Counted from the first letter of the stretch, positions 42,027 to 61,018 are shown. The stretch: 64,000 nucleotides of DNA from Dehalococcoidia bacterium (GCA_038227375.1 JBBRPY010000005.1:457-64456), one strand, 5' to 3'. Notes: a model not told the origin generated them from the letters alone. A program made the numbers and translations.

Positions 42027-42868
42027 CAGCTCGCGAACCGCCCGCGCTTTCGCCAGGCGTCGCGGGAGGGAGATGTGCCCGCGAGGATCAGCTTCGTGCG
42101 GTGAATCCGCAGCGGCGTACCGAATCCGAGCGCGAGCGCTACTTGCTCCGGACGGCCGCTGCCCGTGTTGTCGTTCTTCAGTCGCATCCGCAGCGACATG
42201 CGTTCGCCACCGGCGTCGATGAGGGCGATGCGCTCGACCTGCGCACGAATGTCGTATGAGCGCACCTCGTCGTCGCGCTTGTGCTGCCACGGCACGGTGG
42301 CCGCGCTCATGAATGCGTCTATGGCTGCTTCCGGCGTGCGGACGATGGATGTTGGATGTTGGATGTTGGATGTTGGATGCGCGCTTCCAGCCTCCAGCTT
42401 CCAGCCTCCAGCTTCGCCCGCACCTGCGACCGTACCCGCCTGCACCTCAACCCCAGCTTCCAGCTTCCAGGCTCCAGCTTCGGCGACATCCACGACAGCC
42501 GCCTGCACTTCAACCAGATATTCCGCGAAGCGGACGTCGGCCTGGAGCGCGGGCAACGCCAATCCCGCTTCCTCGACGGCGACGATCGCCATCGCCGGCG
42601 GCAGCTGCTTCGTGGCGTCGAGCAGGAAGGTCTTTGGTGCGATCCGTTCGTCCATGAAGACGTCCATCAGCTCGGCCTCGCTCGTCGTGCCGACGGGGAG
42701 CGGCGCGGCGAGCGAGAGCTGCGCGTGCGGGGAGAAGCCCTCGGAGTACGCGACGGGCAGTTGTGCGCGCCGCAACGCCCGCTCCCAGAAGCGCATGAGG
42801 TCGAGGTGCGTGATGTACTTCAGTTCCTCGCCGCGTCCGAAGGTGACCCGCAGCCGCTGCACCTTCAT
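42026..42868 (-). CDS. DUF2344/TIGR03936 family (radical-SAM-associated) protein carrying an in-frame heptamer-repeat insertion
   Basis: N-terminus MKVQRLRVTFGRGEELKYITHLDLMRFWERALRRAQLPVAYSEGFSPH. The central segment ...AGAWKLEAGVEVQAG...GGWKLEAGSAHPTSNIQHPTSI is encoded by tandem heptamer repeats at 42345-42483. Confidence 0.7.
   Translation of the reverse strand: MKVQRLRVTFGRGEELKYITHLDLMRFWERALRRAQLPVAYSEGFSPHAQLSLAAPLPVGTTSEAELMDVFMDERIAPKTFLLDATKQLPPAMAIVAVEEAGLALPALQADVRFAEYLVEVQAAVVDVAEAGAWKLEAGVEVQAGTVAGAGEAGGWKLEAGSAHPTSNIQHPTSIVRTPEAAIDAFMSAATVPWQHKRDDEVRSYDIRAQVERIALIDAGGERMSLRMRLKNDNTGSGRPEQVALALGFGTPLRIHRTKLILAGTSPSRDAWRKRGRFAS
42345..42483. repeat. STRR-like heptanucleotide tandem arrays inside a coding region: (GGATGTT)x4.5, (CTTCCAG/CCTCCAG)x4, then (CTTCCAG)x3
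   Basis: Read directly: ggatgttggatgttggatgttggatgttggatgc gcgc ttccagcctccagcttccagcctccagcttcg ... ccccagcttccagcttccaggctccagcttcgg. Confidence 0.75.
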
Positions 42869-44196
42869 CAGCCAGCGTCCTGGGCGACGTGATCCTGCGC
42901 GCCGACGCGCGTGATGACGACGGACTCGATTTTCACGCCCTTCACCGCGGACACAGTGATCCGGTAACCGTCGATGGCGAGCGTCTCGCCCTCGCGGGGG
43001 ATGTGGCCAAGCTGTTCCAGCACAAAGCCCGCGACCGTCTCGTAATCGCCTTCGGGCAGCTCGACCTCGAGTTCCTCGCGCACATCGAAGATGCTCATGC
43101 CGCCATCCACGCGGGTCGTGTTCTCGTCGATCGTCGAGAACTCCTCCGATGGCTCGCCCAGCTCGTCGACGACGCGCCCGACCATCTCTTCGAGCATCAG
43201 CTCCAGCGTGATGACGCCGGCGACGCCGCCGTATTCGTCGACGACGATCGCCATCTGCTGGCGCTGGTCCTGCATCTGCCAGAAGAGCGCGCTGACCGGC
43301 TTCGTCTCGGGCACAAACGGCGCCGGCCGGAAGAGCGTCTCGAGCGGGGAGTCCTCGGTGATCTGGTGCTCGGCCAGCGCACGCAGGACATCCTTGATGC
43401 TGATGATGCCGACGACGTTGTCGATCGAATCGTCGTACACGGGGAAGCGAGAGTGCGGCGTCTTGTCGAAGGTCTCGTAGAACTCACGGACGGTCTCGTT
43501 CTTTTCGAGCCAGACCACCTCCGTCCGCGGCACCATGATCTCGTTGACGCGACGGTCGTGAAAGTGAAAGACGCGGTCCAGCAACTCGGCCTCTTGCTCG
43601 TTCACCGACCCCTCTTCGGCGCCGATGTCGATCAGCATCCGCAATTCCGCTTCCGTGACCATGTGCCGCTCGGCCGCATTGCCGAAGAGATTCGGGATGA
43701 CGGCGAGCGCGCTGATCACGGGGCTCATAATGCGCACCACGACCTCGACGGGGATGGCGACGGCGTAGGCGATGCGCTCCGGCGAGCGGGCGGCCATCAC
43801 CTTCGGCGTGTATTCGCCGAACTCCGCGGCGATCAACGGGATCGCGACCAGGCTGAAGAAGAAGCCCCACTTGCCGAAGAGGTCGACGGCGATGACGGTG
43901 CCCGCCGTCGATGCGAGAAAGATCGAAAGGTTTTGCATGATGACGACGACGCCGAAGTAGCGTTCCTGCGCATTCTTCAGCCGCTCCAGTGCGCGCGCCG
44001 AACGATGACCTTCCTCGGCAGCAGAACGCACCTTCAGGCGGCTCGACGCCACGACGGCGATCTCGATGCCGTTGACGAGCGCATAGCCGAGCAGGCCGCC
44101 GACGAACAGCACGATCGCGAGCGGGACCGGGATGGGGAGCGATGCGTTTTCAGCGAGGACGATGGGCGGAACGCCCGACAGAGGGGTGTCTAACAT
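42868..44196 (-). CDS. hemolysin family protein (CNNM TM domain + CBS pair + CorC/HlyC)
   Basis: DUF21 TM region followed by CBS domains and a CorC_HlyC C-terminus. Start taken at MLDTPLSG (ATG 44194-44196). Confidence 0.8.
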   Translation of the reverse strand: MLDTPLSGVPPIVLAENASLPIPVPLAIVLFVGGLLGYALVNGIEIAVVASSRLKVRSAAEEGHRSARALERLKNAQERYFGVVVIMQNLSIFLASTAGTVIAVDLFGKWGFFFSLVAIPLIAAEFGEYTPKVMAARSPERIAYAVAIPVEVVVRIMSPVISALAVIPNLFGNAAERHMVTEAELRMLIDIGAEEGSVNEQEAELLDRVFHFHDRRVNEIMVPRTEVVWLEKNETVREFYETFDKTPHSRFPVYDDSIDNVVGIISIKDVLRALAEHQITEDSPLETLFRPAPFVPETKPVSALFWQMQDQRQQMAIVVDEYGGVAGVITLELMLEEMVGRVVDELGEPSEEFSTIDENTTRVDGGMSIFDVREELEVELPEGDYETVAGFVLEQLGHIPREGETLAIDGYRITVSAVKGVKIESVVITRVGAQDHVAQDAG

Positions 44197-44369
44197 GCAG
44201 GGTGCGCGGACTCGCGGCCGCGTGGCCGGGGCGCACGCCGCCCCGCTGCGCGCATGATAGCGCACTGAATGACCGGCGGGTTGGGGTCAAGGCGACGGTC
44301 GTTGACGGCAAGTCGCCCGGATAGAAGTGGGATCAGACCACGGCCGATGGGCGCATGTCGAGGGAATGG

Positions 44370-45002
44370 TCAGCCCGCGGCGGCCTGCGGAAGTTCTGAT
44401 GCCTCGCACCCGACCGCCAGCGGCTGCTCGGCGTCCAGCGCGCTTCCTCCCTCGAGAAGGCTTTCTTCCAGCAGCCGCATCGACTGCTCGCACCACTCGA
44501 TGTAGGCGCGGCGGTAGGAGATCGCCATCTCCAGCGTGAGGGCCCAAAAGAGCCCGTTCTTCGTTGAATGAGACTTCTCGATGCCCTGCCGGATCTTCTC
44601 TCGCAGCACCGTTTCGGAGAACGCCAGCATCATCTGCTGCTCCTCCATCTGGCGGCGCATCATGATCAGCACGTCCTCGATCGGCACCTGCGTGCCGAAG
44701 AAGACCTTGATCAGGAACGGGTCGCGCATGTCCGCTGGAGATTGCGGCGCCCGCACCCAGCGGAGGAATTCGTCGCGGCCGCCGTCGGTGATCTGGTACA
44801 CCTTGCGGTTCGGGCGGTTCTGCTGCACTTCGACGTGCATATCGACGAAGCCGCCCTCTTCGAGCGACTTCAGTGTGGGGTATATCTGGCTCAGCTCGGC
44901 ATTCCAGAAGTGCTGCACGGAGGAGTCGAAGAACTGCTTCAACTCGTAGCCCGTCATCTGGCCGTAGCCGAGGATGCCCAGGAGCGCGTGCTTCAGCGAC
45001 AT
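44370..45002 (-). CDS. PadR family transcriptional regulator
   Basis: MSLKHALLGILGYGQMTGYELKQFF... is a PadR winged helix with a C-terminal extension. Confidence 0.8.
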   Translation of the reverse strand: MSLKHALLGILGYGQMTGYELKQFFDSSVQHFWNAELSQIYPTLKSLEEGGFVDMHVEVQQNRPNRKVYQITDGGRDEFLRWVRAPQSPADMRDPFLIKVFFGTQVPIEDVLIMMRRQMEEQQMMLAFSETVLREKIRQGIEKSHSTKNGLFWALTLEMAISYRRAYIEWCEQSMRLLEESLLEGGSALDAEQPLAVGCEASELPQAAAG

Positions 45003-45042
45003 CGTCTGCCCTCGTGCCGGCGGCGCATTTGCGGCCCGGCCA

Positions 45043-45237
45043 TCAGATCCAGGGGCTATGAGCCTTGAGCGGCTGCTGGGCGCGCAGCGCCTCCGGCTGC
45101 GGCCGCTTCGCTCGCTCACGGTCGAGGCGCTGTAGGTCCCTGAGCCTTTGCAGCCACGTCGCGCGCCTGGCGAGACGGTCGTGCTCGGCTTCGACCGAGC
45201 GATAGATGAATGCGGCGAATCCGGTAAAATCCATCAC
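45043..45237 (-). CDS. small hypothetical protein upstream of padR
   Basis: 64-aa ORF with coiled-coil-like composition. Weak support. Confidence 0.25.
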   Translation of the reverse strand: MMDFTGFAAFIYRSVEAEHDRLARRATWLQRLRDLQRLDRERAKRPQPEALRAQQPLKAHSPWI

Positions 45238-45382
45238 GTGGCGCCTCCCAGCGTCGATTCGGAGAGCTCGGCTCCTCTATATATCGACACTTATATATAA
45301 CTCTTGATACATGGGGCGAGCAAGCGCGCGTGGAGGGTACATGTCTTCGGCCCCGGCGGGCGCCCTTGCCCCGCACGGGGGA

Positions 45383-45733
45383 TCAGGTCCCGAGAAGCGA
45401 TTCCAACAGCAGCGGCAACTCCTCCGCAAGCTGCGAGCGCGGCGCCACCTGGTCGGCGCCCGCAGTGCGAGCGGCGCGCAGCACGCCGGGCTCCGTGTGC
45501 CGCCCGAAGGCGAGGACGCGCGCGCCCGCCGCCTTCGCCGCGGTGATGGTCGCCCCCACGTCTACGCCGCCTTCGTGGAGGTCGATGATGACGAGCGCCG
45601 GGTGCGACTCCACGGCCTTCGCCGCGGAGGCGGCGTCGTCCGCCACGACGGCTTCGTGACCGGCCGCCTCGACTGCGGCGGTGATCCGCGATTGGAACAG
45701 GAGGTCGGACACGATGACGGCGACGGTGCTCAT
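45383..45733 (-). CDS. response-regulator receiver-like (CheY-like, possibly degenerate) domain protein
   Basis: VAVIVSDLL...LVIIDLHEGG... The phosphoacceptor-position Asp is present but the acidic pocket is incomplete. Confidence 0.5.
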   Translation of the reverse strand: MSTVAVIVSDLLFQSRITAAVEAAGHEAVVADDAASAAKAVESHPALVIIDLHEGGVDVGATITAAKAAGARVLAFGRHTEPGVLRAARTAGADQVAPRSQLAEELPLLLESLLGT

Positions 45734-46239
45734 CCCTGATGGTACCGGAGCGCACGGGCTCCCTCGTGGAAAGAGCCAGTCGGCGCCATCGATCTTGCCG
45801 CGTGGTGCGGCTTACGCCAGGACGCTCGCGAGCGCGCTCACCAGCATGATGCCGAGCACGGAGACGTGCAGCGCGTAGTGGTGCTTCACGAGCGCGGACA
45901 GGCGCCACAGTTCGCCGAACGGCAGCGCGGCGCGCTTCGGGCGGAAATAGTCGATGCGGATCTTGAGATTGTCGGCGTGGTGCAGCATCGCGTGCTCCTG
46001 CTTTGGCGGGACTTGGTTCGCGGCCGCGCCGTGCTGCCCGGAGTGGGTGCAGCGGGCGGCCGGGCGGCGTCGTCCTTCGATTATCGGAGGCGCGGTCGCA
46101 AATTGCCATGAACCGAGCGTCTCATCGTAGGCACAAGGGGCGACAGGATCATCTATCGCTCTCGTCCGTGCGCCCTTGCGGCGCAGCCACGCCGTTCCGA
46201 TGCCTGTCACGCCTCACCTGTCGTCGGTACGCTACTGCC

Positions 46240-47214: not shown

Positions 47215-47334
47215 CACTCGCGCCCGCCGCGCCGGCCACGGCGACCGATTTGCGCTGTTGGGCCGCCAACGTCGGTTCGGCCCGCTTGCTAGAATCTGGC
47301 GGATGCGGCGCCCATCGGATTTCGCCGCGACCGC

Positions 47335-47420
47335 GCCGGGGTGGCGGAATTGGTATACGCAGCGGACTTAAAATCCGCCGGCCGCAAGGCATTGTGGGTT
47401 CGAGCCCCACCCCCGGTACC
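47335..47420 (+). tRNA. tRNA-Leu (anticodon TAA), class II with a long variable arm
   Basis: Acceptor GCCGGGG/CCCCGGT. Anticodon stem-loop GCGGA-CTTAAAA-TCCGC. 15-nt variable arm. T-arm GTGGG-TTCGAGC-CCCAC. Discriminator A and an encoded CCA. Confidence 0.85.
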
Positions 47421-47526
47421 AGATTCCACCGCCGCTCCGTGCCTGACTTCGCAAGTCTGGTTGGATGATCCGGCTCCGGTCCGGACCCGCAACAGGCGCT
47501 CTTGCCCGCCTCGATACAATGAACAC

Positions 47527-49416
47527 GTGACGTCCACCAGATTCGCCGAGCAGCTTGCGCAGGTCCCGACATCGCCGGGCGTTTATCTGATGCGCGGCGG
47601 CGAGGGGCAGGTGATCTACGTCGGGAAGGCGGCGAACCTCCGCAACCGCGTGCGCTCCTACTTCGGGGCGCCCGGCAGCATGGAGGGCAAGACCCGGGCG
47701 CTCTCGGCCTCGATCACCGACTTCGAGTACGTGGTGACGAACACCGAGCAGGAAGCGCTGCACCTCGAGGCGGAGCTGGTGAAGCGCCACCAGCCGCTCT
47801 TCAACATCCGCCTCAGGGACGACAAACACTACCCGTACCTCAAGGTGGACCTCACCGACCCCTGGCCGCGAGTCTACATAACGCGCCGGGTGGAGAAGGA
47901 CGGCGCGCGCTACTTCGGTCCCTATGCGAATGCCGGCTCAGTCCGCCGCACGCTCGACATCGTCAACAAGCTCTTCCCCTGGCGGTCCTGCACGAAGGTG
48001 ATCACCGGCGTCGACCCGCGGCCGTGCCTGGACTACTACATCAACCGCTGCATCGCGCCCTGCACGTCGTACTGCACGAAGGAGGAGTACGACGAGGTGA
48101 TCCGCCAGGTGATCCTCTTCCTCGAAGGCCGCACCGACGAGGTCGTGCGGGAGGTGACGCGCCAGATGGCCACCGCATCGGACGCGATGCAGTACGAGCG
48201 CGCCGCGCGCCTGCGCGACCAGCTCCAGGCGATGGCGCGCGTGACCGAGCGCCAGACCGTGGCCAGCACACGGCCCGCTGACGAGGACATCTTCGGAGTC
48301 GCGCGCGGCGATGACGACGCCGTCGTGCAGGTGCTCTTCGTGCGCGGCATCAAGATGGTCGGCGTCGACAGCTTCACGCTCGCGGGCACGAGAGATGAGA
48401 CCGACGCTGATGTGATGGCCAGCTTCGTCAAGCAGTTCTACGAGTCGGCGACGTACGTCCCCCGCCGCGTCATCGTGCCGGCGGAGCTGACCGATCACGC
48501 GCTGATCGAGAGCTGGCTCAGCGAGCGGCGCGGCACGAACGTCGAGCTGCTGGCGCCCCGGCGCGGGGAGAAGCGGCGCCTGGTCGAGATGGCGGCGAAC
48601 AACGCGCGCGAGACGCTCGACATGGCGCGCGTGAAGTGGCTGGCTGACACCAGAAAGACGCGGGCGGCGCTCGAAACCCTGCAGGAGGAGCTGGACCTGC
48701 CGGCCCTCCCGCATCGCATCGAGTGCTACGACATCTCGAACATCCAGGGGACGAACTCCGTGGGATCGATGGTCGTGTTCATCGACGGCCACCCGAGACC
48801 GCAGGAGTACCGCCGCTTTCGCATCAAGTCCGTCGTCGGCGCGAACGATTTCGCGTCGATGGCTGAGGTGTTGCGCAGGCGCTTTCGCCGCGCGCGAGAG
48901 AAACTCCTGCACGACACCGGCGCAAGGGCGCCTGACGTCGACACATCATCGTCGAACGGCGAACGCGCGGCCGCGGATGAGTCGTTCGCCGCGCTGCCGG
49001 ACCTCGTGATCATCGACGGCGGCAAAGGGCAGCTCTCGGCGGTGATGGACGTGATGCGCGAAATGGGCGTGAAGGGCATCCCCACCGTCGGTCTCGCGAA
49101 GCAGCACGAGGAAATCTGGGTGCAGGACGTGTCCGAGCCGATCGTGCTGGCGCGGCAGTCCCAGGCGCTGTATCTCGTGCAGCGCGTGCGCGACGAAGCC
49201 CACCGCTTCGCCATCACCTACCACCGGGGCCTGCGGAGCAAGGCGGGGATGCAGTCGGCGCTGGATACAATTCCGGGCGTCGGGCCGAAGCGCAAGAAGG
49301 CCTTGCTGAAGAAGTTCGGCTCGGTACGCGGCGTCCGGGAGGCGACGGTAGAAGACGTGGCGTCCACCGTGGGATTCACGACCGCGCTCGCCGTGAAGGT
49401 AAAGGCGGGCCTCTAA
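47527..49416 (+). CDS. uvrC: excinuclease ABC subunit C
   Basis: GIY-YIG N-terminus (GVYLMRGGEGQVIYVGKAANLRNRV), UvrBC interaction region, RNase H-like domain and a (HhH)2 C-terminus. GTG start at 47527. The ORF track start at 47341 lies inside the tRNA. Confidence 0.9.
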   Translation: MTSTRFAEQLAQVPTSPGVYLMRGGEGQVIYVGKAANLRNRVRSYFGAPGSMEGKTRALSASITDFEYVVTNTEQEALHLEAELVKRHQPLFNIRLRDDKHYPYLKVDLTDPWPRVYITRRVEKDGARYFGPYANAGSVRRTLDIVNKLFPWRSCTKVITGVDPRPCLDYYINRCIAPCTSYCTKEEYDEVIRQVILFLEGRTDEVVREVTRQMATASDAMQYERAARLRDQLQAMARVTERQTVASTRPADEDIFGVARGDDDAVVQVLFVRGIKMVGVDSFTLAGTRDETDADVMASFVKQFYESATYVPRRVIVPAELTDHALIESWLSERRGTNVELLAPRRGEKRRLVEMAANNARETLDMARVKWLADTRKTRAALETLQEELDLPALPHRIECYDISNIQGTNSVGSMVVFIDGHPRPQEYRRFRIKSVVGANDFASMAEVLRRRFRRAREKLLHDTGARAPDVDTSSSNGERAAADESFAALPDLVIIDGGKGQLSAVMDVMREMGVKGIPTVGLAKQHEEIWVQDVSEPIVLARQSQALYLVQRVRDEAHRFAITYHRGLRSKAGMQSALDTIPGVGPKRKKALLKKFGSVRGVREATVEDVASTVGFTTALAVKVKAGL

Positions 49417-50126: not shown

Positions 50127-50200
50127 CATCTGCTGATGCGCTTGCCTTCCACGCATTTTGTGTTCGTATCGAAACGTGGGGAAAATGTGTAGGCCACTGG

Positions 50201-50228
50201 CTAGACACTTGCCCATCACGTGTTACAA
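50201..50228 (+). promoter_or_regulatory. candidate sigma70 promoter TAGACA-N16-TACAAT upstream of xerD
   Basis: Located in the lower-GC spacer 50130-50283. Confidence 0.35.
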
Positions 50229-50283
50229 TCGCCCTGCAATTCTCCCTTTCTTGCAGCAATATTCTCACCATTGCGAGGGCACA

Positions 50284-51207
50284 ATGGATGATCACATTGG
50301 GCATTTCCTTAACTTCATGTCGGTGGAGAAAGGTGCGTCCGGCAACACTGTCTCGGCATACAAAAATGACCTGCAGCAGTTCGACGTCTACGTCACCTCG
50401 ATCCACGGCAACGGCACGAAGGCTCGCGATTGGGATCGCGTCGAGCGCGATCTGATCATCAACTACCTGCTGAACCTGCGTAGCCAGAAGCACGATGGCA
50501 AGGGCTACGCGGAAGCGACCGTCGCCCGCAAAGTCGCGGCGATGAAGTCGTTCTTCCAGTACATGCAGGCCGAAGGTCTGATCCAGGGCAACCCGACCGA
50601 AAGCCTGGAGTCGCCGCGCGTCGGCCGCTCGCTGCCGAAGCCGCTGTCCGTGACCGAGGTGGACGAGCTGCTGGAACAGACGATGAAGCGCAGCACGCCG
50701 GAAGCAAAGCGCGACCGCGCGATGCTCGAGTTGCTCTACGCGACCGGCCTTCGCGTCACCGAGCTGGTATCGCTGGACGTCGCGGACATCAACATGCACG
50801 GGCTCTATGTCCGCTGCATGGGGAAGGGCTCGAAGGAGCGGACGATCCCCTTCCTCGAGCAATCAGGCGCAGCGGTCGAGGATTATCTGAACGACGCGCG
50901 CGCGGCCCTCGTGAAGAACCGCAAGGAAGATGCGCTCTTCGTGAACCGGCGCGGCGAGCGGCTGACCCGGCAGGGGTTCTGGCTGATCCTGAAACAGTAC
51001 GCGCGGGACGCGAACATCACCTCGTCGGTGACGCCGCATACCTTGCGGCACTCCTTTGCCACTCATATGATCAGGGGCGGAATGAACCTGCGCGTCGTCC
51101 AGGAACTGCTCGGGCATGCCAATATTTCCACGACGCAGGTCTACACGCACGTCGGCGACGAGCACGTCCGCCAGGTGTACGAGAAAGCCCACCCTCGCGC
51201 CCGATAG
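50284..51207 (+). CDS. xerD: site-specific tyrosine recombinase XerC/XerD family
   Basis: MDDHIGHFLNFMSVEKGASGNTVSAYKNDL N-terminal SAM-like domain. Catalytic R..HxxR..Y (LRHSFATHMIRGG...TQVYTHV). Confidence 0.85.
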   Translation: MDDHIGHFLNFMSVEKGASGNTVSAYKNDLQQFDVYVTSIHGNGTKARDWDRVERDLIINYLLNLRSQKHDGKGYAEATVARKVAAMKSFFQYMQAEGLIQGNPTESLESPRVGRSLPKPLSVTEVDELLEQTMKRSTPEAKRDRAMLELLYATGLRVTELVSLDVADINMHGLYVRCMGKGSKERTIPFLEQSGAAVEDYLNDARAALVKNRKEDALFVNRRGERLTRQGFWLILKQYARDANITSSVTPHTLRHSFATHMIRGGMNLRVVQELLGHANISTTQVYTHVGDEHVRQVYEKAHPRAR

Positions 51208-53200
51208 GGGTCCGCGAACCAGCAGCCGTCACGGCCGCCTCCTGCTCGGGGCGGCCGTCTCGTTATGTGCGGCTGCCGTGATGCTCGCCGCGTGCAGCGG
51301 CTCGAAGAAGGGACGGGCGCCGACAGACACGCCGGGCGCCGGCAGCGGCGCCACCGCCACGGCTGCGGTGTCACCTCCTGCGCCCGCGGCGACCGTACCG
51401 GCGCAGAATGCCGAGCTCTCAGGGCAGATAGGCGTCCGCGCGGCGCTGCCCTTGAATCGACCGATTGACCTCGCAGCGGCATACGGTCGCACGCGCGGGC
51501 CCGCGCCCGCCGCCAAGCCATTCGCCGGCGAAGCGAACCTCGGTGACCATCGCGCCTTCACGGTGGTGGAGCTTTCGACGGGTGTGCTCGAAGGGACAGC
51601 GCCGCCCGGCGTTCGCGCGATCGACGGCGTCTTGCTGGGCAAGAGTGCGCACGCCTACTTCTACCAGGACGCGGCGATCGGCTCCGAAGCGGCGAGCGTC
51701 CAGGCCGCGGCCGACCTGTTCGAGGCGACGGTCTGGCCCACCGTCATCGGCGTGTTCGGCGAGCCCGCGGCTCCGGGCGTCGATGGCGACCCACGGATCA
51801 TCGTCCTCCAGGCGGACCTCGGCGGCGCCGCCGGCGGCTACTTCCAGACGGACGACCTCTACCTGCGGGCGGTGCATCCGCTCAGCAACGAGGCCGAGAT
51901 GGTGTACATCGACCGCACCCTCAAGCCCGGGACGGCGGCGTTCAACGTCGTGCTCGCGCATGAGTTCCAGCACCTGATCCACGCCAGGAACGACATCGCG
52001 GAGGAGTCGTGGGTGAACGAAGGCCTGTCGGAGGATGCGTCCGGGCTTGTCGGCGCCGCCGTTTCGTCGGTGAACTCCTTTGAGGCGCACCCGGAGACGC
52101 AGCTCAACGACTGGACGAGCACCCTCGTACACTACGGGGCCGGCGCGGCGTTCTTCCGCTACTTCGCCAGCCGCTGCGGTGGCGACCCGACGCTCGGCGC
52201 GCTCGCCCGCGCGCAGCAGCACGGGGCGGCCGGCGTCGACGAAGTGCTCGCGTCGATGGGCCAGCCGCTGCCCTTCCGCGATGTCTTCGCCGACTGGGCG
52301 GCCGCCAACATCCTGAATCGCGACGACGGCCCCTATGGGAACCCCGGTCATCCGCTCGACCTCCGCATCAACGACGAGCTGACGGCAGGCGCGGCGGTGG
52401 ACGGCACGGCGGCGCAGTTCGGCACCAACTACTACCGGCTGGGTGGCCTCGACCAGGGCGAGTACACGCTCCGGTTCGACGGCCAGCCGGGTGTGCGCGT
52501 GCTGCCGACCGACCCGCCACCTGGGAGCAGCGCCATGCTCTGGGGGAACGCCGAGGACGGCATCGATACGCGCCTGACGCGCGCCGTCGACCTCACCGGC
52601 GCTACGGACCCGGTGCTGACCTTCCAGACGTGGTTCGACATGGAGCGCTGGTACGACTGGGGGTACGTCGCCGTCTCGACGGATGGCGGTGCGAGCTGGC
52701 AGGCGCTGCCCGGCGGCCGCTCCAGCGCCAGCGACCCCGTCCAGGTGGCACTGGGGCCGGGATATACCGGCAAGAGCGGCGATGGCGCCGACCCGGCGTG
52801 GGTGACCGAGCGCGTCAGCCTGGCGAAGTACGCCGGACAGAAGGTGCTGGTCCGGTTCGAGTACGTGACCGATGGTGGCACGCACCGAGAGGGCTGGTCC
52901 ATCGCGAACGTGGCGATCGAGGGCACGAGCTTCCGCGACCCGACGCTCAGCGACCCCGAATGGCAGTCCGAGGGCTGGGTGCGCATCGACCGCCCGCTGC
53001 CGCAGACCTACGTCGTGCGGCTGATCGAGAGTCGCGCGGACGGCACCGCAAGCGTCCTCGACGTCCCGCTGGACGCCGCCAACCGCGGCGTGCTGCGCTT
53101 CTCCGCCGCGGGCGTCGAAAGCGCGACGCTTGCCATCGCCGGCAGCACCGAGGGCACTAATCAGAAGGCGGCGTATCGGATGGAGCTGGGACGGCCGTAG
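51116..53200 (+). CDS. putative secreted/lipoprotein zinc metalloprotease (HExxH)
   Basis: Lipobox-type signal LLLGAAVSLCAAAVMLAAC. HEFQHLIH zinc-binding motif with a downstream E. The start is uncertain: the only canonical in-frame start before the signal is ATG 51116, which overlaps the xerD 3' end by 92 nt. A CTG at 51242 is the alternative. Confidence 0.6.
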   Translation: MPIFPRRRSTRTSATSTSARCTRKPTLAPDRGPRTSSRHGRLLLGAAVSLCAAAVMLAACSGSKKGRAPTDTPGAGSGATATAAVSPPAPAATVPAQNAELSGQIGVRAALPLNRPIDLAAAYGRTRGPAPAAKPFAGEANLGDHRAFTVVELSTGVLEGTAPPGVRAIDGVLLGKSAHAYFYQDAAIGSEAASVQAAADLFEATVWPTVIGVFGEPAAPGVDGDPRIIVLQADLGGAAGGYFQTDDLYLRAVHPLSNEAEMVYIDRTLKPGTAAFNVVLAHEFQHLIHARNDIAEESWVNEGLSEDASGLVGAAVSSVNSFEAHPETQLNDWTSTLVHYGAGAAFFRYFASRCGGDPTLGALARAQQHGAAGVDEVLASMGQPLPFRDVFADWAAANILNRDDGPYGNPGHPLDLRINDELTAGAAVDGTAAQFGTNYYRLGGLDQGEYTLRFDGQPGVRVLPTDPPPGSSAMLWGNAEDGIDTRLTRAVDLTGATDPVLTFQTWFDMERWYDWGYVAVSTDGGASWQALPGGRSSASDPVQVALGPGYTGKSGDGADPAWVTERVSLAKYAGQKVLVRFEYVTDGGTHREGWSIANVAIEGTSFRDPTLSDPEWQSEGWVRIDRPLPQTYVVRLIESRADGTASVLDVPLDAANRGVLRFSAAGVESATLAIAGSTEGTNQKAAYRMELGRP

Positions 53201-53207
53201 CGCCTGG

Positions 53208-53270
53208 GCTGTTGGAGGCTGGAGGCTGGAGGCTGGGGTGTCGGAAGTCGGAAGTCGGAGGTCTGCAGGC
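53208..53270. repeat. STRR-like heptamer arrays (GCTGGAG)x4 and (GTCGGAA/G)x3
   Basis: gctgttggaggctggaggctggaggctgggg tgtcggaagtcggaagtcggaggtctgcagg. Confidence 0.75.
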
Positions 53271-53302
53271 GTTTGGGGCGAGCGAGATGCTTTTCAATGG
53301 CG

Positions 53303-54726
<1,424 letters not shown>

Positions 54727-54763
54727 GCCGCCGTGGTTTTCGGGCGGGCTCGGCGCTATGAAG

Positions 54764-54985
54764 TGGCGGATGTTAGATGTTGGATGTTGGCGGGGATCGG
54801 CCGGCGCCTTGGGCGCGAGCATTGGCTCCAGGCTTGCGTGCGAACTGGGCTCCCGGTGGGCGAGCCGGGCGCGGTCGAGTTGCGGATGTTGGATGTTGGG
54901 GGGGACGGCCGGCGGCCTGGGTGCGAGCATTGGCGCCAGGCCTTGCGGGTGAACCTTGGCTGCGCGAGCTAGGCGCGGTCGAGTT
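54764..54985. repeat. minisatellite: two ~105-115-bp direct tandem units, each beginning GCGGATGTT(A/G)GATGTTGG and ending GGCGCGGTCGAGTT
   Basis: Unit 1 is ~54764-54881 and unit 2 is ~54882-54985, about 85% identical. A third, truncated unit merges into the hairpin element at 54999-55053. Confidence 0.7.
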
Positions 54986-54998
54986 GCGGATGTTTTAA

Positions 54999-55053
54999 GT
55001 TAGATGTTGGAGGTTGGAGGGGCTCGGCCAACTAACATCCAACATCTAACATC
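54999..55053. repeat. palindromic heptamer-built element, copy 2, downstream of eno (same stem sequence as 53303-53376)
   Basis: gttagatgttggaggttggagg ggctcggcc aactaacatccaacatctaacatc. Confidence 0.65.
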
Positions 55054-55061
55054 GACCGCTT

Positions 55062-55079
55062 CCCGGAGAAGTCTCCGGG
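55062..55079. terminator. GC hairpin CCCGGAG-aagt-CTCCGGG, a candidate (bidirectional) terminator
   Basis: 7-bp perfect stem ~50 nt downstream of the minus-strand ACAD gene stop. There is no U-tract, which is common in high-GC genomes. Confidence 0.35.
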
Positions 55080-55125
55080 ACGAGTGACCGCCCCGACGAC
55101 CGATGACCGACGACTGGTCCCACCG

Positions 55126-56289
55126 TTAGACCATCGGCGACGAGGGCTCCAGCCCAAGCAGCACCTTGCCGGCGGTCTCGTAGTTCGCCGGGGCCAGCAT
55201 CACATGCTGAGTCGCGGCATGCGCATCGCGCAGGCAGCGCTGGAGCACGCTCTTCTCGTACAGGGCCGTGCCGCCGCCGAGCGTGTACGCCATATCGACG
55301 GCGCGCGCCGACTCCAGCGCCGCGTGGGCGCAGGCCATCCGCAGGAGCGCCCGATCGCGCATGGTCGCCTGGTCGCCGGCGACGACCTTCGCCCAGATCT
55401 CCCCGGTGATCTCGTAGAGCCAGGCGCGCGCCGACCTCAGCGCCGCCTCGGCGCGGGCGAGCTCGTACTGCGTGATCCCCTTGTCCCGCAGCTTGCTGAA
55501 GCTTCCCATCGGCGTCTTCGCGCTCGCCAACTCTGCCAGCTCGTTCAGCGCCCGGCGGGCTATGCCGAGCGGGATCGGGGCGATCGTCAGCGCCAGGAAG
55601 CCGAGGACGGGGAAACGGTACAGCGGCCCATCCACCACCGGACGCGAGGACATGAATCCAATCGCTCGGTCGTCCGGTACGAACACGTCCTTAACCGCCA
55701 TGTCGCGGCTTCCCGTGCCGCGCAGGCCCGAGACGTGCCAGGTGTCGATGATCTCGACCTGCTCGGCCGGAAACACCATCGTCCGCCAGTCGGGCATGCT
55801 GGCAGAGAGCATCCGCGGCTGGTCGCCGTCGAAGATCAGCGTGCCGCCGACGAGCCATGAGCAGTGTGTGCAGCCGCTCGCGAAGGGCCAGCGCCCGCTG
55901 ACGCGGAAGCCGCCTTCGACCGGCGTCGCGCGGCCGTTGGGCGCCATCGCGCCGCCGGTGACGACGCCCTGGTGGAACACATCAGGCGCCGTCGCCTCGG
56001 GCATATACGCCGCGATGATGCTGGTGCCACAGCCGATGCCGACCACCCACGACGTCGAGCCATCAGCGACCGCCAGCTCTTCGAGTACGCGCAGCATCGT
56101 CACGATGTCTACTTCGAGGCCGCCGTACTTCCGGGGCAGGATCATGTCGAAGAGTCGCCGCTCGTGGAGGACTTGCACGAGCTTGGGCGGGCACTGCCGC
56201 CCGCGCTCGGCCTCATCGGCGAAGGAGCGCACCGTGTCCGCCAGCTCCGCCGCGGCGCCGATCATGTCTGGTGGTGAGGATGTCGCCAT
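55126..56289 (-). CDS. acyl-CoA dehydrogenase family protein (flavin-dependent monooxygenase-like)
   Basis: 387 aa with an ACAD N/M/C domain pattern (RKYGGLEVD...SGRWPFASGCTH...). Confidence 0.8.
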   Translation of the reverse strand: MATSSPPDMIGAAAELADTVRSFADEAERGRQCPPKLVQVLHERRLFDMILPRKYGGLEVDIVTMLRVLEELAVADGSTSWVVGIGCGTSIIAAYMPEATAPDVFHQGVVTGGAMAPNGRATPVEGGFRVSGRWPFASGCTHCSWLVGGTLIFDGDQPRMLSASMPDWRTMVFPAEQVEIIDTWHVSGLRGTGSRDMAVKDVFVPDDRAIGFMSSRPVVDGPLYRFPVLGFLALTIAPIPLGIARRALNELAELASAKTPMGSFSKLRDKGITQYELARAEAALRSARAWLYEITGEIWAKVVAGDQATMRDRALLRMACAHAALESARAVDMAYTLGGGTALYEKSVLQRCLRDAHAATQHVMLAPANYETAGKVLLGLEPSSPMV

Positions 56290-56343
56290 GCGGGGCTCCT
56301 GCGCTGCGGCACTGCCGGTGCCCGAGTATACGCACGCCTGGTC

Positions 56344-56399
56344 GTTGGAGGCTGGAGGTTGGAGGCTGGAGGTTGGAGGTTGGAGGTTGGAGGTTGGAT
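56344..56399. repeat. STRR-like heptamer array (GTTGGAG/GCTGGAG)x8
   Basis: gttggaggctggaggttggaggctggaggttggaggttggaggttggaggttggatg. Confidence 0.8.
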
Positions 56400-56425
56400 G
56401 CCTGGCGGACGCCGATCACCGGCGA

Positions 56426-56475
56426 GCCCTCACCCCGCCCTTCGGGCAACCCTCTCCCAGGAGGGAGAGGGGATC
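56426..56475. repeat. REP-like hairpin element, direct copy (CCCTCTCCC-agga-GGGAGAGGG)
   Basis: GCCCTCACCCCGCCCTTCGGGCAACCCTCTCCCAGGAGGGAGAGGGGATC. Confidence 0.5.
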
Positions 56476-56514
56476 GCACGCGATTGGTGGTGCGAAAATG
56501 TTGGCGCCTTCGCC

Positions 56515-56600
56515 CCCGACGACTCACGACCGACGACCGTCGCCCCCACGACTGCCGACCGGCGCCGACGACGCCGACCGACGACCGACGACCGGCTGAT
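56515..56600. repeat. heptamer arrays of the CGACGAC/GACGACC type
   Basis: cgacgactcacgaccgacgaccg...gccgaccgacgaccgacgaccgg. A similar array lies at 55084-55117 on the other side of the ACAD gene. Confidence 0.5.
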
Positions 56601-56612
56601 AAACTGCACACC

Positions 56613-57320
56613 GTGAATTCGCATTCCCTGCCCGATCACTACGCCACCCTCAACGTGCATCCGGATGCTACCGATGCCGAGATCAAGCGCAGCTACCGGA
56701 AGCTGATGCGCGCGGTGCATCCGGACGCGAACAAGAGCGACCCGAATGCGAACCAGAAGGCGGCGGCGCTCAACCACGCCTTCGAGACGCTCGGCGACCC
56801 AGCGAAGCGCCGCCTCTACGACGACGAGCGCGGCCGCAAGAGTGTCCGCCGGTACGAGGCCTGGGCCGAGCAGCCCGACTGGGAGGACATCGTCGCCGAA
56901 CAGGCGGTGCGGCCGCGCAAACCGAAGCACGTCCACACCGACGACCCCACCATCGAACCGGCCGAGATCGAGGTCGACATGTCGGAGCTGCGCGAGCGGC
57001 CGCGCGTCCGCCGGGCGATTACGGTGACGAATCATTGTGCTTGCACGCTGGCAGGCGACGTCTCGACGTCGGAGCCGTGGGTGTGGGGCCCCGTGGGCGA
57101 AATCCGCATTGGCCCGCACGCGAGCGCCACGTTCGATGTCGAGGTGATCGCGCGCAAGGTCGCCTTCCCCGGCATCTCCCGCGCCATCTTCGTCACCCGC
57201 GACTGGAGTGGCGTCGTGCCGGTGAAGGTGACCGGGTACGAGCCGCGGCGGCGGCGCGTGCCGACGGCCGCCGATATGGCGTATGCCCCCGCTCGCCGCC
57301 GCCGCTGGGTCCGTCGCTGA
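56613..57320 (+). CDS. J-domain protein (DnaJ-like N-terminus, unknown C-terminal domain)
   Basis: DHYATLNVHPDATDAEIKRSYRKLMRAVHPDAN carries the HPD motif. GTG start at 56613 chosen from the homology, since the upstream ORF extension is repeat-derived. Confidence 0.75.
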   Translation: MNSHSLPDHYATLNVHPDATDAEIKRSYRKLMRAVHPDANKSDPNANQKAAALNHAFETLGDPAKRRLYDDERGRKSVRRYEAWAEQPDWEDIVAEQAVRPRKPKHVHTDDPTIEPAEIEVDMSELRERPRVRRAITVTNHCACTLAGDVSTSEPWVWGPVGEIRIGPHASATFDVEVIARKVAFPGISRAIFVTRDWSGVVPVKVTGYEPRRRRVPTAADMAYAPARRRRWVRR

Positions 57321-58210
57321 TGATGCAGCCGCCGCTCCCCACGCCCGGCCAGCGCGTCAGCGGCATCGACATCCCGGAGACGTTCGCGCTGCCGGGCAAG
57401 CCGGACGAATCGGCTCCCGCCGCCGTCCGCGGCGCCTACCGCCAGACGCAATTTGCGCTCGGCAAGGACCTGCGCCTTTTCGCGGAGGGCATGAACCTGC
57501 AGCTGGCGATCCTGCGCGACTCGTCGCACTCGCGCTACCGCACGCACGCCTATGCCGCCGTCGTTGGCGCGTGGTCGCGGGCGTACATGGCCCTCGGCGA
57601 TGCGGCGCTGCTGGTCACGCGCGGCTCCTACGCGTCGGCGCCGAACGTCGTGCGGTCGGTGTGCGAGCTGATCGCCGCCGAGCATCAGCTGCAACGCGAA
57701 GAGATGCCCGAGTTCGTCGGCTGGATGCTGGGCCATCTGAAGCCGGATGAAGAGCACAAGGCGTTCGACATCGGTCTCGGCCACTACTTCGCCGGGACGA
57801 CGCTAGCCGCCGATGCCGAGTTGCGGCTGCTCTATCGCGCCGCGAGTGACCTCGGCCGCCCCAACTTCGGCGCCACCCTGTTGGCGGCCGGACCGGAGTC
57901 GAACAACCTGCGTCTGGCGCTGAACTTCGCCGACCCGTCGTTCCACTTCGGCTGGGCCGAGATCGAGCTGGGCTGGTTGCTCCGCCTCTGCGAGCGGCAG
58001 CTCGCGGTGGCGGTGCATATGCCGGAGGTGCTGAACATCACCGCCGATACCCACACCGCCTATGCGGCGTACGGCGCCCGGGTGCAAGAGACGCTGTCGA
58101 ACCCCGCCCGCGCCCGCATCGAGGAAGTGCAGTCGGGCGAATTCAAGCGCTGGCTGGTCCACAACTTCCGCCGCCAGCCGTCCGGCGCGCCGAAGAAGAT
58201 GCTGCTGTAG
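57320..58210 (+). CDS. hypothetical protein, translationally coupled to the J-domain gene
   Basis: 296 aa. ATGATG overlaps the TGA of the J-domain gene. Coherent composition with no motifs. Confidence 0.55.
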   Translation: MMQPPLPTPGQRVSGIDIPETFALPGKPDESAPAAVRGAYRQTQFALGKDLRLFAEGMNLQLAILRDSSHSRYRTHAYAAVVGAWSRAYMALGDAALLVTRGSYASAPNVVRSVCELIAAEHQLQREEMPEFVGWMLGHLKPDEEHKAFDIGLGHYFAGTTLAADAELRLLYRAASDLGRPNFGATLLAAGPESNNLRLALNFADPSFHFGWAEIELGWLLRLCERQLAVAVHMPEVLNITADTHTAYAAYGARVQETLSNPARARIEEVQSGEFKRWLVHNFRRQPSGAPKKMLL

Positions 58211-59107
58211 CCGGATGGTGATTGGTGACTGGTGATTCGTCGCTTGTGACCACCGATGCGCCGTCAGGTGCAGATTGCCGTGAGGTCCCGCTGCAAGCGC
58301 CCGAATCAGCGTGGGGTCGTGGCCGAGGCACTCGTGCTCGACGAAGCGGAACACTGCCAACCACTGGCTGAAGCTCAAATGCGATGCCGGCGCGTCAGGC
58401 GCGAAGCAGTGATCGCGCGCGAGGCGCTTGACCTGGCGCGCCGTCAGCTCGCGGCGTAGCGTCGCCCAGAGCCCGTGCGTGAAGGCCGCCGTCGTCAGCG
58501 ACCGATATCGCGCGGCCGCCGTCGGCTCGACAAGCGGCACAAAGCGGCGTTCGATGCGCAGCAGCGCGCTTTGCACACGCGGCGGCGGCGTGAAGTTCCG
58601 CCGGTCGATGACGGCGACGATGGCGATCTCTGACCACGGCTTGTGCAGCAGCGAGAAGAGCGTCTCCCGCGGCGTACCGGCGAACTTCTCGGCCGCCTCG
58701 CGCTGCACGATGAGGGCGGCGATGTCGGGCGGACGCGCCGCGTGCAGCAGTTTGCGGACGACGGCCGCGGTGATGCCGTAGGGCAGGTTCGAGGCCGCGC
58801 AGTATGCGGTCGATGGCAGAGCGAACTGCAGGGCATCCGCCAGCACGCACTCGACGTTGCCACGACCGGACATCCGCGCGCACAGCATCGCGTGCAGCCG
58901 AGGGTCCTTCTCGATGGCGATGACGCGAAAGTCGGCGCTACATAACGCTTCGGTGAGCATGCCGTCACCCGCGCCGGGCTCGACGACGAGCGCGCCCGGC
59001 GGCAGGCGCATCCGCTGCACGAGGGCGCGCGCGACGGCGGCATCACGCAGGTAGTGTTGCGACAGTTCGGGGCGGCGATGGACGGTCCTGGAGTTGATGC
59101 GGCGCAT
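57803..59107 (-). CDS. rRNA adenine N6-methyltransferase family protein (KsgA/Erm-like) with apparent loss of its stop codon
   Basis: QHYLRDAAVARALV...VVEPGAGDGMLTEAL...ASNLPYGITAAVV. Homology ends near 58330. The frame then runs ~170 codons of R/G/Q-rich antisense-like sequence to a stop at 57803, overlapping the convergent gene by ~400 bp. Confidence 0.55.
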   Translation of the reverse strand: MRRINSRTVHRRPELSQHYLRDAAVARALVQRMRLPPGALVVEPGAGDGMLTEALCSADFRVIAIEKDPRLHAMLCARMSGRGNVECVLADALQFALPSTAYCAASNLPYGITAAVVRKLLHAARPPDIAALIVQREAAEKFAGTPRETLFSLLHKPWSEIAIVAVIDRRNFTPPPRVQSALLRIERRFVPLVEPTAAARYRSLTTAAFTHGLWATLRRELTARQVKRLARDHCFAPDAPASHLSFSQWLAVFRFVEHECLGHDPTLIRALAAGPHGNLHLTAHRWSQATNHQSPITIRLQQHLLRRAGRLAAEVVDQPALEFARLHFLDAGAGGVRQRLLHPGAVRRIGGVGIGGDVQHLRHMHRHRELPLAEAEQPAQLDLGPAEVERRVGEVQRQTQVVRLRSGRQQGGAEVGAAEVTRGAIEQPQLGIGG

Positions 59108-59410
59108 GCGGCACCTCCGGCCGGCGGAGGCGTCGTGTCGCACGAAACGCGGGAAACGGAAGGCGCGGCAACGACGCCGTCAGCAGGCACACAAACGAGA
59201 GTCCTGTGACAGGAGGTAAGACCGACTGAGGGATCAGCCGGGTGTCCGCGTTGAGCGGACCGTTAGCGTCGTAGGCGTATGATCGCGCACATCATTTCTT
59301 CGCACATGCTATCGACGGTCGTGAGCGCCGTCAATTCCGGGTGGGATGCGACGATGAGCGCCAATTCCCTAAACCTCGCCGCCCGCAACACTGCGGGCGC
59401 CGGCAGCAAG

Positions 59411-61018
59411 CTAACGAACGATTTCGCTGACCGGCACGAGCGTGCGCGCGAGCTCGCGCTGGTAGGCGGAGACGGCGCGCGCGATATCGTCGTCGCTCCA
59501 GCCGAGGCGCTGCGCCATGACGCGCGCGGCGCGCTCGGCGCCGTCGAGCGCGTGGCACTTGCTCCAGCCGACGGGCAGGCGCCGCAGCAGCACATCCGCG
59601 AGTGTCACTGCCTGCTGGCGATCGACGGCGTACGCAACCTGCGCCAGCAGCTCCGGATTGTGCGCGCAGATCTGCTCGCCCAGTGCGGGCTCGGCGGCGA
59701 TCAGCGCGCGCACTTCGTCCCCGCGCCGTCCGTACACCCCAAGCGGGTCTCGCTGAGGCCAAGGTCCAGCCTCCAGCCTCCAGCCTCCAGCTTCGCTCGC
59801 ATGCGGAACCGCACTCTCGCCCACACGCTCGCCGCTCGGCGCGACATGCTTCCGGATCGCCGCCAGCGTCATCCGCGACAGCGCGCGGTACGTCGTCAGC
59901 TTGCCGCCGACGATCGTCAGCAGGCCATTCGGGCCGCCGCGTTTCACGTGGTCGATGACGAAGTGGCTGCGCGAGATCGTGCTCTCATCGCCGCCGGTGT
60001 TGTATGGCAGCGGGCGGACGCCGCAATAGGTGTACAGCACGTGCTCGGGAAGCAGCGGTGTCGCGGGGAAGAGGCGGGTCGCCTCCCGCAACAGGTAGTG
60101 CAGCTCGTCCGGCGTGCAGCGGGCCTGCGACGGGTCGCCGTCGAAGCGCAGGTCCGTCGTGCCGATCAGCGTGTAGCGATACCAAGGCAGGATGAAGAAT
60201 GGGCGGCCATCCTCTTTCGCCGAAGCGAAGATGGCGTGTTCTGGACCGCCCGGCCACTCGACGACGAGATGGCTGCCCTTCGTGCCGCTGAGCAGCCGGT
60301 CGTGGCGCTCGGCGTCGCTGCCTGCGAGCACCTGCTCCACCCACGGTCCGGCCGCGTTCACGACGCATTTCGCCTCGACTTCGGCGCGGGCGCCCGTGCA
60401 TTCGTCGCGCAGCTCGACGCCGCGCAGCACGCCGCCCGGCGATATCAGGCGCACCGCCGCGACGTGATTGATCGCGGTGCCGCCCGCATCCGTCATCTCG
60501 CGCACCGATTCGGCGACGAGGCGCTCGGGGAACTCGACCTGCGCGTCGTAGAAGGTGTAGGCCGCGCTGAGCCCATCGCGGTTCAGGCCCGGCTCATAGG
60601 CGTCGAGGGCGCTCGATGGCATCGCCCGGTGACGCGGCAGCGACTTGCGGAACGAGAGCAGGTCGTACAGCGTCAGCCCGGCGCGCACCTTCCACGCCGG
60701 CCGCTCGTCGCCCCGATACACCGGCGCCAGCAGGCGCAGCGGGCGCACGAGGTGCGGCTCCTCGCGTATGAGTGTCTCGCGCTCCGCCAGCGACTCGTAG
60801 ACGAGCCCCACCTCGCCGTGCTCGAGGTAGCGCAGGCCGCCATGGATCAGTCGCGTCGCGCGTGCGGTCGTCCCAGCGCCGAAGTCAGCGCGTTCCACCA
60901 GCAGCGTCCGATATCCGGCGAGTGCCGCGGCGCGGGCGATGCCGGCGCCGTTGATGCCGCCGCCGATCACGAGCACGTCAAACGAAAGCTTCGCGATATC
61001 GCTGACGTCCGGCCTCAT
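59411..61018 (-). CDS. glpD: glycerol-3-phosphate dehydrogenase (FAD-dependent)
   Basis: [24 protein letters not shown]... dinucleotide-binding motif. Start at ATG 61016-61018, overlapping the glpK stop. Contains an in-frame (GCTGGAG)x3 insertion. Confidence 0.9.
59765..59796. repeat. STRR-like heptamer array (CTCCAGC)x3-4 inside glpD, encoding ...[11 protein letters not shown]...
   Basis: tccagcctccagcctccagcctccagcttcg. Three heptamers total 21 nt, so the reading frame is preserved. Confidence 0.75.

Follow-up and report, generated by a model that had tools for sequence, protein, structure and literature searches.

Heptanucleotide tandem arrays in a Dehalococcoidia contig: period-7 excess, G-arm-first inverted pairs at gene ends and in-frame insertions within genes

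Here, we analysed a 64,000-nt stretch of DNA from Dehalococcoidia bacterium (GCA_038227375.1, JBBRPY010000005.1:457-64456; the window, with positions counted from its first letter), in which a first-pass annotation made from the sequence alone had pointed to scattered tandem arrays of 7-nt units. With a probability of roughly 0.6, we consider these arrays to be heptanucleotide simple sequence repeats (SSRs) that are maintained by slippage, tolerated in spacers and protein loops and occasionally copied, with a subset of hairpin-forming arrays that are probably transcript-end structures. The tolerated sites are intergenic spacers, mostly at gene 3′ ends, together with surface loops or linkers of proteins, as seen in the window and the sampled loci; inside a gene, only arrays whose overall insertion length is divisible by 3 persist.

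Period-7 arrays are in excess in the window

Arrays were called with Tandem Repeats Finder (TRF), and the array counts refer to this 64-kb window, not to the whole genome. TRF recovered fourteen period-7 arrays where the first-pass annotation had placed them, and a further one that it had not mentioned, at 53347-53376 (AACATCT/AACATCC), which is the second arm of a hairpin. At least seven unit types were found over nine loci in the 64 kb. Most of them differ by one or two bases from GTTGGAG (GCTGGAG, GTTGGAT, GTTAGAT and GTCGGAG/A), those outside this family being GTCGTCG, GGTGATT and CGCTGGT, and identical units reappear at several loci.

Exact runs of at least 10 matches were then counted per lag, with 100 first-order Markov simulations of the window as the null. 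Eight runs were observed at lag 7, whereas the simulations gave 0.29 on average and never more than 2; the remaining lags from 4 to 11 gave none, and lag 12 gave one. The arrays are thus longer than composition predicts, as expected of long SSRs with units of 5-11 nt. The earlier description of densely spaced tandem heptamers of several related types was sound, and the excess of period 7 over other periods, which it had proposed to check genome-wide, was seen in the window. What it had missed was the pairing of arrays into hairpins at gene ends, the copying of one element to two sites and the translation of in-frame insertions. An exact search of the full-text literature with the array sequences matched only unrelated eukaryotic primers, and an Rfam scan of the window assigned neither the arrays nor a 104-bp repeat to any RNA family, its single match being a tRNA.

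Arrays within genes are translated in frame and inherited

Genes were mapped by Pfam and reading-frame analysis, and some arrays do lie in coding sequence, as had been claimed. In the DUF2344 gene (42026..42868, − strand), TRF found (TGGATGT)4.9 at 42346-42379 with 100% matches, which on the coding strand is a (CATCCAA)4.9 array translated as HPTSNIQHPTS. Next to it are the 14-mer GCTTCCAGCCTCCA, repeated 2.4 times at 42383-42415, and (CCAGCTT)4.1 at 42453-42481; on the coding strand these are two (GAAGCTGGAGG)-type arrays with a 37-nt spacer, translated as EAGGWKLEAG and EAGAWKLEAG. Compared with a 231-aa homologue (P0002), the three arrays together make up an insertion of 49 aa, encoded by 147 nt (21 x 7), and the DUF2344 Pfam profile of 176 positions is stretched across 236 residues, the surplus being translated arrays. 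The alignment of 28 orthologues (57-76% identity) showed inserts of varying length, all at one site. Perfect (CATCCAA)4-5 DNA persists in some orthologues ((CATCCAA)4 in loci L121 and L122), decayed peptide relics such as WKMEDG, TPSSTVHPPSS and GPASSFQRPTS are found in others, and a few have no insert. Such a pattern would be expected if a microsatellite had been born here once or a few times, with slippage keeping it homogeneous while long and decay setting in when short. The DUF2344 array pair was also considered as a functional RNA hairpin and rejected, as its fold was no better than those of shuffles (z −1.34 and +0.36).

In glpD (59411..61123, −), TRF found (TCCAGCC)3.9 at 59765-59791, a (GCTGGAG)3.9 array on the coding strand that is translated at about aa 444-455, in the poorly conserved linker that joins the FAD domain to the C-terminal domain. 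Moreover, in-frame arrays of the GTTGGAG family, mostly read as LQPPTSN repeats, were found in the MetH interdomain linker (L020 1390-1472) and an FGE-sulfatase (L041 4643-4673) of Acidobacteriota metagenome-assembled genomes (MAGs), in Asd of a Chloroflexota MAG (L093 2695-2797) and in PBP1 of an Anaerolineales MAG (L031 4578-4620). As 7 and 3 have no common factor, a heptamer array gives one and the same heptapeptide repeat in whichever frame it is read, and it never brings a stop by itself. Such arrays add low-complexity linkers to proteins (LQPPTSN, HPTSNIQ, GGWRLEA), and they can mislead gene callers because any frame through an array stays open. A role as phase-variable contingency loci was rejected, given that the intragenic arrays lie in housekeeping genes (DUF2344, glpD) and that the DUF2344 peptide is conserved in orthologues.

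Inverted array pairs form hairpins at gene ends, and one element is present twice

Three array pairs of the window are predicted to fold as hairpins, each with a G-rich array as the 5′ arm and a near-complementary C-rich array as the 3′ arm. Hairpin 1 (53303..53376, +; ΔG −40.7 kcal/mol, z −5.95) lies between tandem genes, 55 nt upstream of the start of the enolase gene eno (53431..54726, +), and consists of a G-rich arm (GTCGGAA/GTTAGAT/GTTGGAG), a 19-nt loop and a C-rich arm (CTCCAAC/ATCTAAC/ATCCAAC), the arms of 24 nt being 92% complementary. Hairpin 2 (54999..55053, +; ΔG −32.9 kcal/mol, z −3.65) lies between eno and the convergent acyl-CoA dehydrogenase gene (55126..56289, −), and TRF called a GTTGGAG array at 55006-55020 and an AACATCC array at 55034-55053 within it. 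Hairpin 3 (58209..58273, +; ΔG −32.7 kcal/mol, z −4.21) is found right after the stop of a + strand gene without assigned function (ending at 58210), convergent with ksgA (59143 downward, −); its 5′ arm is the (GGTGATT/GGTGACT)3 array at 58216-58237, called by TRF as (TGGTGAT)3.1. Overall, the arms measure 17-24 nt, the loops about 19 nt and the whole structures 50-75 nt.

All three are stable, GC-rich hairpins downstream of a stop, as terminators are. Their positions are those at which one would look for terminators or 3′-stabilising hairpins in a high-GC genome with terminators that possibly lack U-tracts. Much as repetitive extragenic palindromic (REP) sequences and bacterial interspersed mosaic elements (BIMEs) do, they probably act as U-tract-less transcript-end structures, either as termination sites or as 3′-end stabilisers. 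A consensus promoter and terminator scan of the window yielded no prediction that bears on the arrays.

Hairpins 1 and 2 share identical arm segments of 22 nt and 21 nt with mixed unit order, and their flanks are alike in the alignment (GCGGATGT... ...CATCGMCCGCTT). As judged from the sequence, they represent the same element of about 85 nt, present twice and bracketing eno as direct repeats at 53298-53390 and 54982-55068. Since independent slippage cannot give an identical mixed unit order, copying between sites has occurred. Direct repeats around eno and the acyl-CoA dehydrogenase gene could make it easier for the gene between them to be deleted, duplicated or exchanged.

The two near-identical copies with conserved flanks on both sides of eno, the palindromic architecture and the gene-end location would also suit miniature mobile elements, similar to miniature inverted-repeat transposable elements (MITEs) or REPs, with a transposase encoded elsewhere and the single arrays as remnants. 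We consider this unlikely. Only two copies were seen in the window, with no evident target-site duplication; the GTAG or CGTC tag at one end of REPs, which are imperfect palindromes of 20-40 bp (PMC3733652), is absent from the hairpin elements; and no RAYT-like gene or transposase was noticed among the open reading frames (ORFs) examined in the 64 kb. Furthermore, arm length and unit order vary freely among loci, which fits SSR dynamics better.

The ksgA (RrnaAD) ORF at 57803-59143 (−) runs through hairpin 3. Its Pfam domain occupies aa 24-268 and the first in-frame stop is at 57803, giving 446 aa, the tail of which crosses the (GGTGATT)3 array and the hairpin and then runs on antisense to the neighbouring gene for about 150 aa. 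The TGA located at 58263-58265 is not in the ksgA frame, and the extended ORF may reflect a lost stop, a frameshift or an error of the MAG consensus.

The G-rich arm precedes the C-rich arm

In one data set, adjacent array pairs with reverse-complementary units had the G-rich array first in 13 cases and the C-rich array first in none. By skew alone, the G-first order was found 31 times versus 6, and these six fit junctions between tandem hairpins. In an independent metagenome set, the 48 unique contexts included 14 in which a partner complementary at 15/20 positions or more followed the G-rich arm and none in which it preceded that arm, which brings the G-first polarity of both sets to 27:0. 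Because the order reads alike on either strand, this is a real asymmetry.

We also placed the arrays relative to genes. The G-then-C pairs occurred in 11 convergent, 10 tandem and 3 divergent contexts, many of them within 10 nt of a stop. Of the 14 arrays no more than 12 nt past a stop, 12 had a G-rich sense strand; farther away the orientation was mixed, and a rule of G-rich sense strands for every array up to 60 nt from a stop failed (16:16). The placement counts, like those of polarity, include several loci per genome and loci chosen for G-rich patterns. A G-rich sense strand in the 50 bp after stops has been reported for the GGGAATC repeats of Xanthomonas and Nostoc (PMC4692102). As one candidate origin of the polarity, a nascent G-rich strand could fold back and prime its own synthesis, which a C-rich strand could not; as another, selection might hold the G-rich strand, which resembles Shine-Dalgarno sequences, in the sense orientation past stops and exclude it from 5′ leaders.

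Further spacer arrays

Other spacer arrays of the window lie outside the hairpins. Two G-rich arrays at 53208..53263 (+), called as (TGGAGGC)3.4 at 53213-53236 and (GTCGGAA)3.4 at 53240-53263, begin 11 nt past the stop of an InhA-like peptidase gene (51116..53200, +) and fold no better than shuffles (z −0.44). Downstream of the eno stop (54726), a 104-bp unit is repeated 2.1 times at 54764..54994 (+; tandem duplication at 54776-54994, TRF period 104, 82% matches), each copy being headed by GCGGATGTT(G/A)GATGTTGG (GGATGTT) heptamers, with GGATGTT arrays called at 54768-54790 and 54884-54899; the alignment-supported repeat gave a significant fold on neither strand. Just past the acyl-CoA dehydrogenase stop lies (GTCGTCG/GTCATCG)3 at 55084..55117 (−; TRF CCGACGA at 55093-55114), which is G-rich in the sense strand of that gene. 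The degenerate (CCGACGA)11.4 array at 56516..56594 (+) ends 18 nt upstream of the probable GTG start, at about 56613, of a gene for a DnaJ-domain protein (+), in the sense strand of which it is C-rich. The acyl-CoA dehydrogenase gene is bracketed by these two (CGACGAC)n arrays, 55084-55117 and 56516-56594. Elsewhere, the degenerate (CGCTGGT)4.7 array at 16440..16473 (−; TRF (ACCAGCG)4.7) is located 4 nt past the stop of the gene at 16477..17721 (−), is G-rich in its sense strand and gave no significant fold.

The longest array, (GTTGGAG/GCTGGAG)7.9 at 56344..56398 (+; TRF (GTTGGAG)7.9), occupies the divergent spacer between the acyl-CoA dehydrogenase and DnaJ genes and showed no Watson-Crick structure (z +1.99 against shuffles). 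RNAfold with G-quadruplex (G4) terms predicts two-tetrad quadruplexes for GGAGGYU arrays, as at 56340-56402, with −34.3 versus −7.0 kcal/mol without G4, and predicts no quadruplex for a GGAUGUU array. The units carry GG tracts only, and none has G-tracts of 3 or more.

The motifs GGAGGT, in the GTTGGAG/GCTGGAG arrays, and GGTGAT, in the GGTGATT array, are complementary to adjacent parts of the 3′ tail of bacterial 16S rRNA, GAUCACCUCC. The arrays at 56344-56398 and 58216-58237 could thus be read as tandem Shine-Dalgarno-like sites, a reading that the remaining units do not fit, and the match may be a coincidence.

Heptamer arrays in other genomes

An exact scan for (GTTGGAG)3 with one genome per species listed at least 120 loci, and the matches listed come from Chloroflexota (Anaerolineae, Tepidiforma, Dehalococcoidia), Acidobacteriota, Bacteroidota, Planctomycetota, Moorena and a few Gammaproteobacteria. 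In 860 kb of the loci listed, we counted 324 exact period-7 runs versus at most 21 for any other period except 14, which is twice 7. Many further units accompany GTTGGAG there, for example AGTGCTG, CGTAAAA, GGATTTT and GAATCGG. The composite 20-mer GTTAGATGTTGGAGGTTGGA from a hairpin of the window was found in 55 metagenome contigs with a GC content of 0.26-0.71.

The wide occurrence of these loci in many phyla had raised the idea that GTTGGAG is a special unit, which a control did not bear out: in viral contigs it was found at 10 loci, versus 10, 6 and 14 for three permuted heptamers of the same composition. As the permuted controls were as frequent, we make no claim of specificity for GTTGGAG, and heptamer periodicity in general appears to be widespread. 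Viral contigs carry heptamer arrays of several units. One of them, IMG/VR UViG_3300041964_000087 (L132, about 610-730), has a hairpin whose 5′ arm is (GGTGGTA)n and whose 3′ arm is (CTACCAC)n, with (GTTGGAG)3 between the two, so that here too the G-arm comes first.

In a Chloroflexi MAG, NC_groundwater_1442 (L023, L058, L089), G-first inverted pairs were seen for at least five unrelated units (GTTGGAG, AGTGCTG, GCAGAAG, CGTAAAA and GGATTTT), indicating that the hairpin architecture is independent of the unit sequence. The complete isolate genome of Tepidiforma flava (NZ_CP115149) contains kilobase tracts in which G-rich and C-rich arrays alternate. One such tract (L048 763-2085, in 1480001-1488000) fills about 1.3 kb between convergent genes almost entirely with heptamer arrays, GGTTGGA/GGTTGAA alternating with CTCCCAA/CTCCCGC as five or six consecutive imperfect hairpins.

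These data bear on the possibility that the arrays are collapsed or chimeric repeats produced by assembly or binning. The contig does come from a MAG, and repeats can be mis-assembled. However, none of the arrays exceeds 80 nt, which is less than the length of a sequencing read; the intragenic ones preserve the frame and are common to orthologues from independent assemblies; and the complete genome of the isolate Tepidiforma flava carries the same arrays, so that an artefact is hardly credible.

A further explanation would be that the arrays bind a sequence-specific factor, with tandem GGAGG or GGTGAT motifs pairing with the 16S rRNA 3′ tail or GGA motifs titrating an RNA-binding protein of the CsrA, S1 or Csp type, and thereby form a post-transcriptional network. 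The complementarity of GGAGGT and GGTGAT to the 16S tail, the orientation rule relative to genes and the retention of the unit family over a wide range of genomic GC all point in this direction, and a regulatory network has likewise been proposed for TAACTGA repeats (PMC4679880). Nevertheless, the GGATGTT, GTCGTCG and GTCGGAA units of the window lack those motifs, the units accompanying GTTGGAG in other sampled genomes (AGTGCTG, CGTAAAA, GGATTTT, GAATCGG) are unrelated to them, the permuted heptamers are about as frequent in viral contigs, and arrays are found in either orientation and within genes. We therefore regard factor binding as improbable.

The strict polarity and the reuse of one unit family in phyla of very different GC could also be the work of a dedicated, horizontally spread enzyme, for instance a telomerase-like reverse transcriptase or a primase-polymerase, which would add G-rich heptamers at DNA ends or breaks, with fold-back fill-in making the C-rich arm. 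The G-rich 7-nt units with predicted G4 potential are telomere-like, and arrays appear de novo within conserved genes with units unrelated to the flanks. If true, this would explain together the 7-nt period, the order of the arms and the reuse of RTTRGAD units at 26% to 76% GC, as well as the insertion into conserved genes, and the arrays would be the footprint of a cross-phylum process instead of passive microsatellites. On the other hand, neither the window nor the surroundings of arrays yielded a candidate gene for the enzyme, many units are not G-rich, and slippage, template switching and selection on orientation also explain the patterns. We hold such an enzyme to be very unlikely.

Slippage, copying and tolerance as the preferred explanation

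We propose that slipped-strand mispairing would lengthen and shorten the arrays in 7-base steps and so keep them internally homogeneous, and that an array falling below a few copies would decay by point mutation. In the summary of earlier work given in PMC4679880, which cites Mrazek (2007), indels in 7-nt steps are described between close strains, and polymerase slippage is proposed. The shared unit families and the copied element of about 85 nt indicate that arrays also spread by duplication or recombination, and not only by local birth.

Several points weigh against this explanation. The nearest DUF2344 homologue is 76% identical, so the variation in insert length is seen at deep divergence. 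Slippage alone leaves unexplained the 7-base period, the occurrence of the same unit family at 26% to 76% GC, and the 27:0 arm polarity, the counts for which take in several loci per genome at loci selected for G-rich patterns. As to the hairpins as transcript-end structures, a U-tract 3′ of the stem is absent at all three (there is no T-run), and the consensus terminator scan reported none of them. Finally, single arrays, 56344-56398 among them, lack Watson-Crick structure.

The analysis yields three testable regularities: the G-rich arm comes first; arrays directly after stops are G-rich in sense; and in-frame insertions are inherited and decay. The arrays could serve as strain-typing markers, and Tepidiforma, which is cultivable and very rich in arrays, would be a good experimental system.

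Host of the contig

The closest homologues of the DUF2344 protein reach at most 76% identity and belong to Chloroflexota/Dehalococcoidia MAGs, which have the CNNM-DUF2344-histidine phosphatase synteny in common with the window. Both observations indicate that the host belongs to Chloroflexota and is not a cyanobacterium, and on sequence grounds the contig is that of a Dehalococcoidia/Tepidiforma-like Chloroflexota MAG. With a GC content of 62-70% in the window, the annotation's impression of a high-GC, non-cyanobacterial genome was thus correct. A tRNA gene with a long arm is located at 47335-47418 (+; 84 nt, 57.7 bits) and overlaps the 5′ part of a mechanically called ORF at 47341..49416.

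Comparison with known heptamer repeats

The phenomenon is already known, and a Chloroflexota example is added here. According to the summary of Mrazek (2007) in PMC4679880, heptanucleotide repeats outnumber the other classes of long simple repeats in most genomes rich in repeats, those of Burkholderia, Actinobacteria and Xanthomonas among them. The long SSRs with 5-11 nt units of that survey (Mrazek, Guo and Shah 2007), as summarised there, resemble the present arrays in the dominance of heptamers, lengths beyond chance, scattered taxa, a mostly non-coding location and slippage as the proposed origin. Judging by the same summary, Chloroflexota and the GTTGGAG family lie outside the survey, and polar inverted pairing and conserved in-frame insertions do not appear in it.

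The first-pass annotation had likened the arrays to the short tandemly repeated repetitive (STRR) elements of cyanobacteria. Such elements were reportedly described by Mazel et al. (1990), with CCCCAGT, TTGGTCA and CAACAGT as the canonical STRR1-3 units. The tandem heptamer form, with several unit types per genome at many dispersed loci, is indeed shared, and Moorena loci in our sample show the same architecture. However, the host here belongs to Chloroflexota, GTTGGAG and its relatives are not STRR1-3 units, and no TRF consensus in the window is a rotation or complement of one. Nor are heptamers peculiar to cyanobacteria, as families are known from Xanthomonas and Nostoc (PMC4692102), Geobacter (PMC2700814) and Beggiatoaceae and Bacteroidetes (PMC4679880). 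The likeness therefore holds for the form of the repeats and not for their units or as a cyanobacterial hallmark.

The GGGNATC repeats of Xanthomonas and Nostoc (PMC4692102) are likewise G-rich heptamers over-represented in non-coding DNA, which prefer spacers between aligned or convergent ORFs, are rare between divergent ones, have the G-rich strand in sense just past stops and show predicted quadruplex potential. In contrast, the present units contain GG instead of GGG, allowing two-tetrad quadruplexes at most, several of them have no G4 potential, and the arrays pair as Watson-Crick hairpins. Geobacter metallireducens carries GGACCGG in about four tandem copies at about 49 places between and within genes (PMC2700814), which is similar in length and in the intragenic occurrence, but its copy number is fixed and its unit single, whereas the arrays here vary in copy number and have many variants. 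The TAACTGA repeats of Beggiatoaceae, Cyanobacteria and Bacteroidetes (PMC4679880) also represent one heptamer family across distant phyla, show 7-nt-step indels between close strains and are mixed with other heptamers, as here; they are found mainly just upstream of starts in sense, while the present arrays cluster after stops and commonly form inverted pairs.

Finally, REP/BIME sequences and the U-tract-less ('I-shaped') terminators of high-GC bacteria share with the hairpins an imperfect palindrome at gene 3′ ends, often between convergent genes, and repetition in the genome; compared with REP/BIME, the present arms are 7-nt periodic and of variable length, carry no GTAG/CGTC tag and follow a strict G-arm-first polarity. 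Three of the features seen here go undescribed in PMC4679880, PMC4692102 and PMC2700814, namely the inverted pairing with its polarity, the element found on both sides of eno and the inherited insertions that stay in frame.

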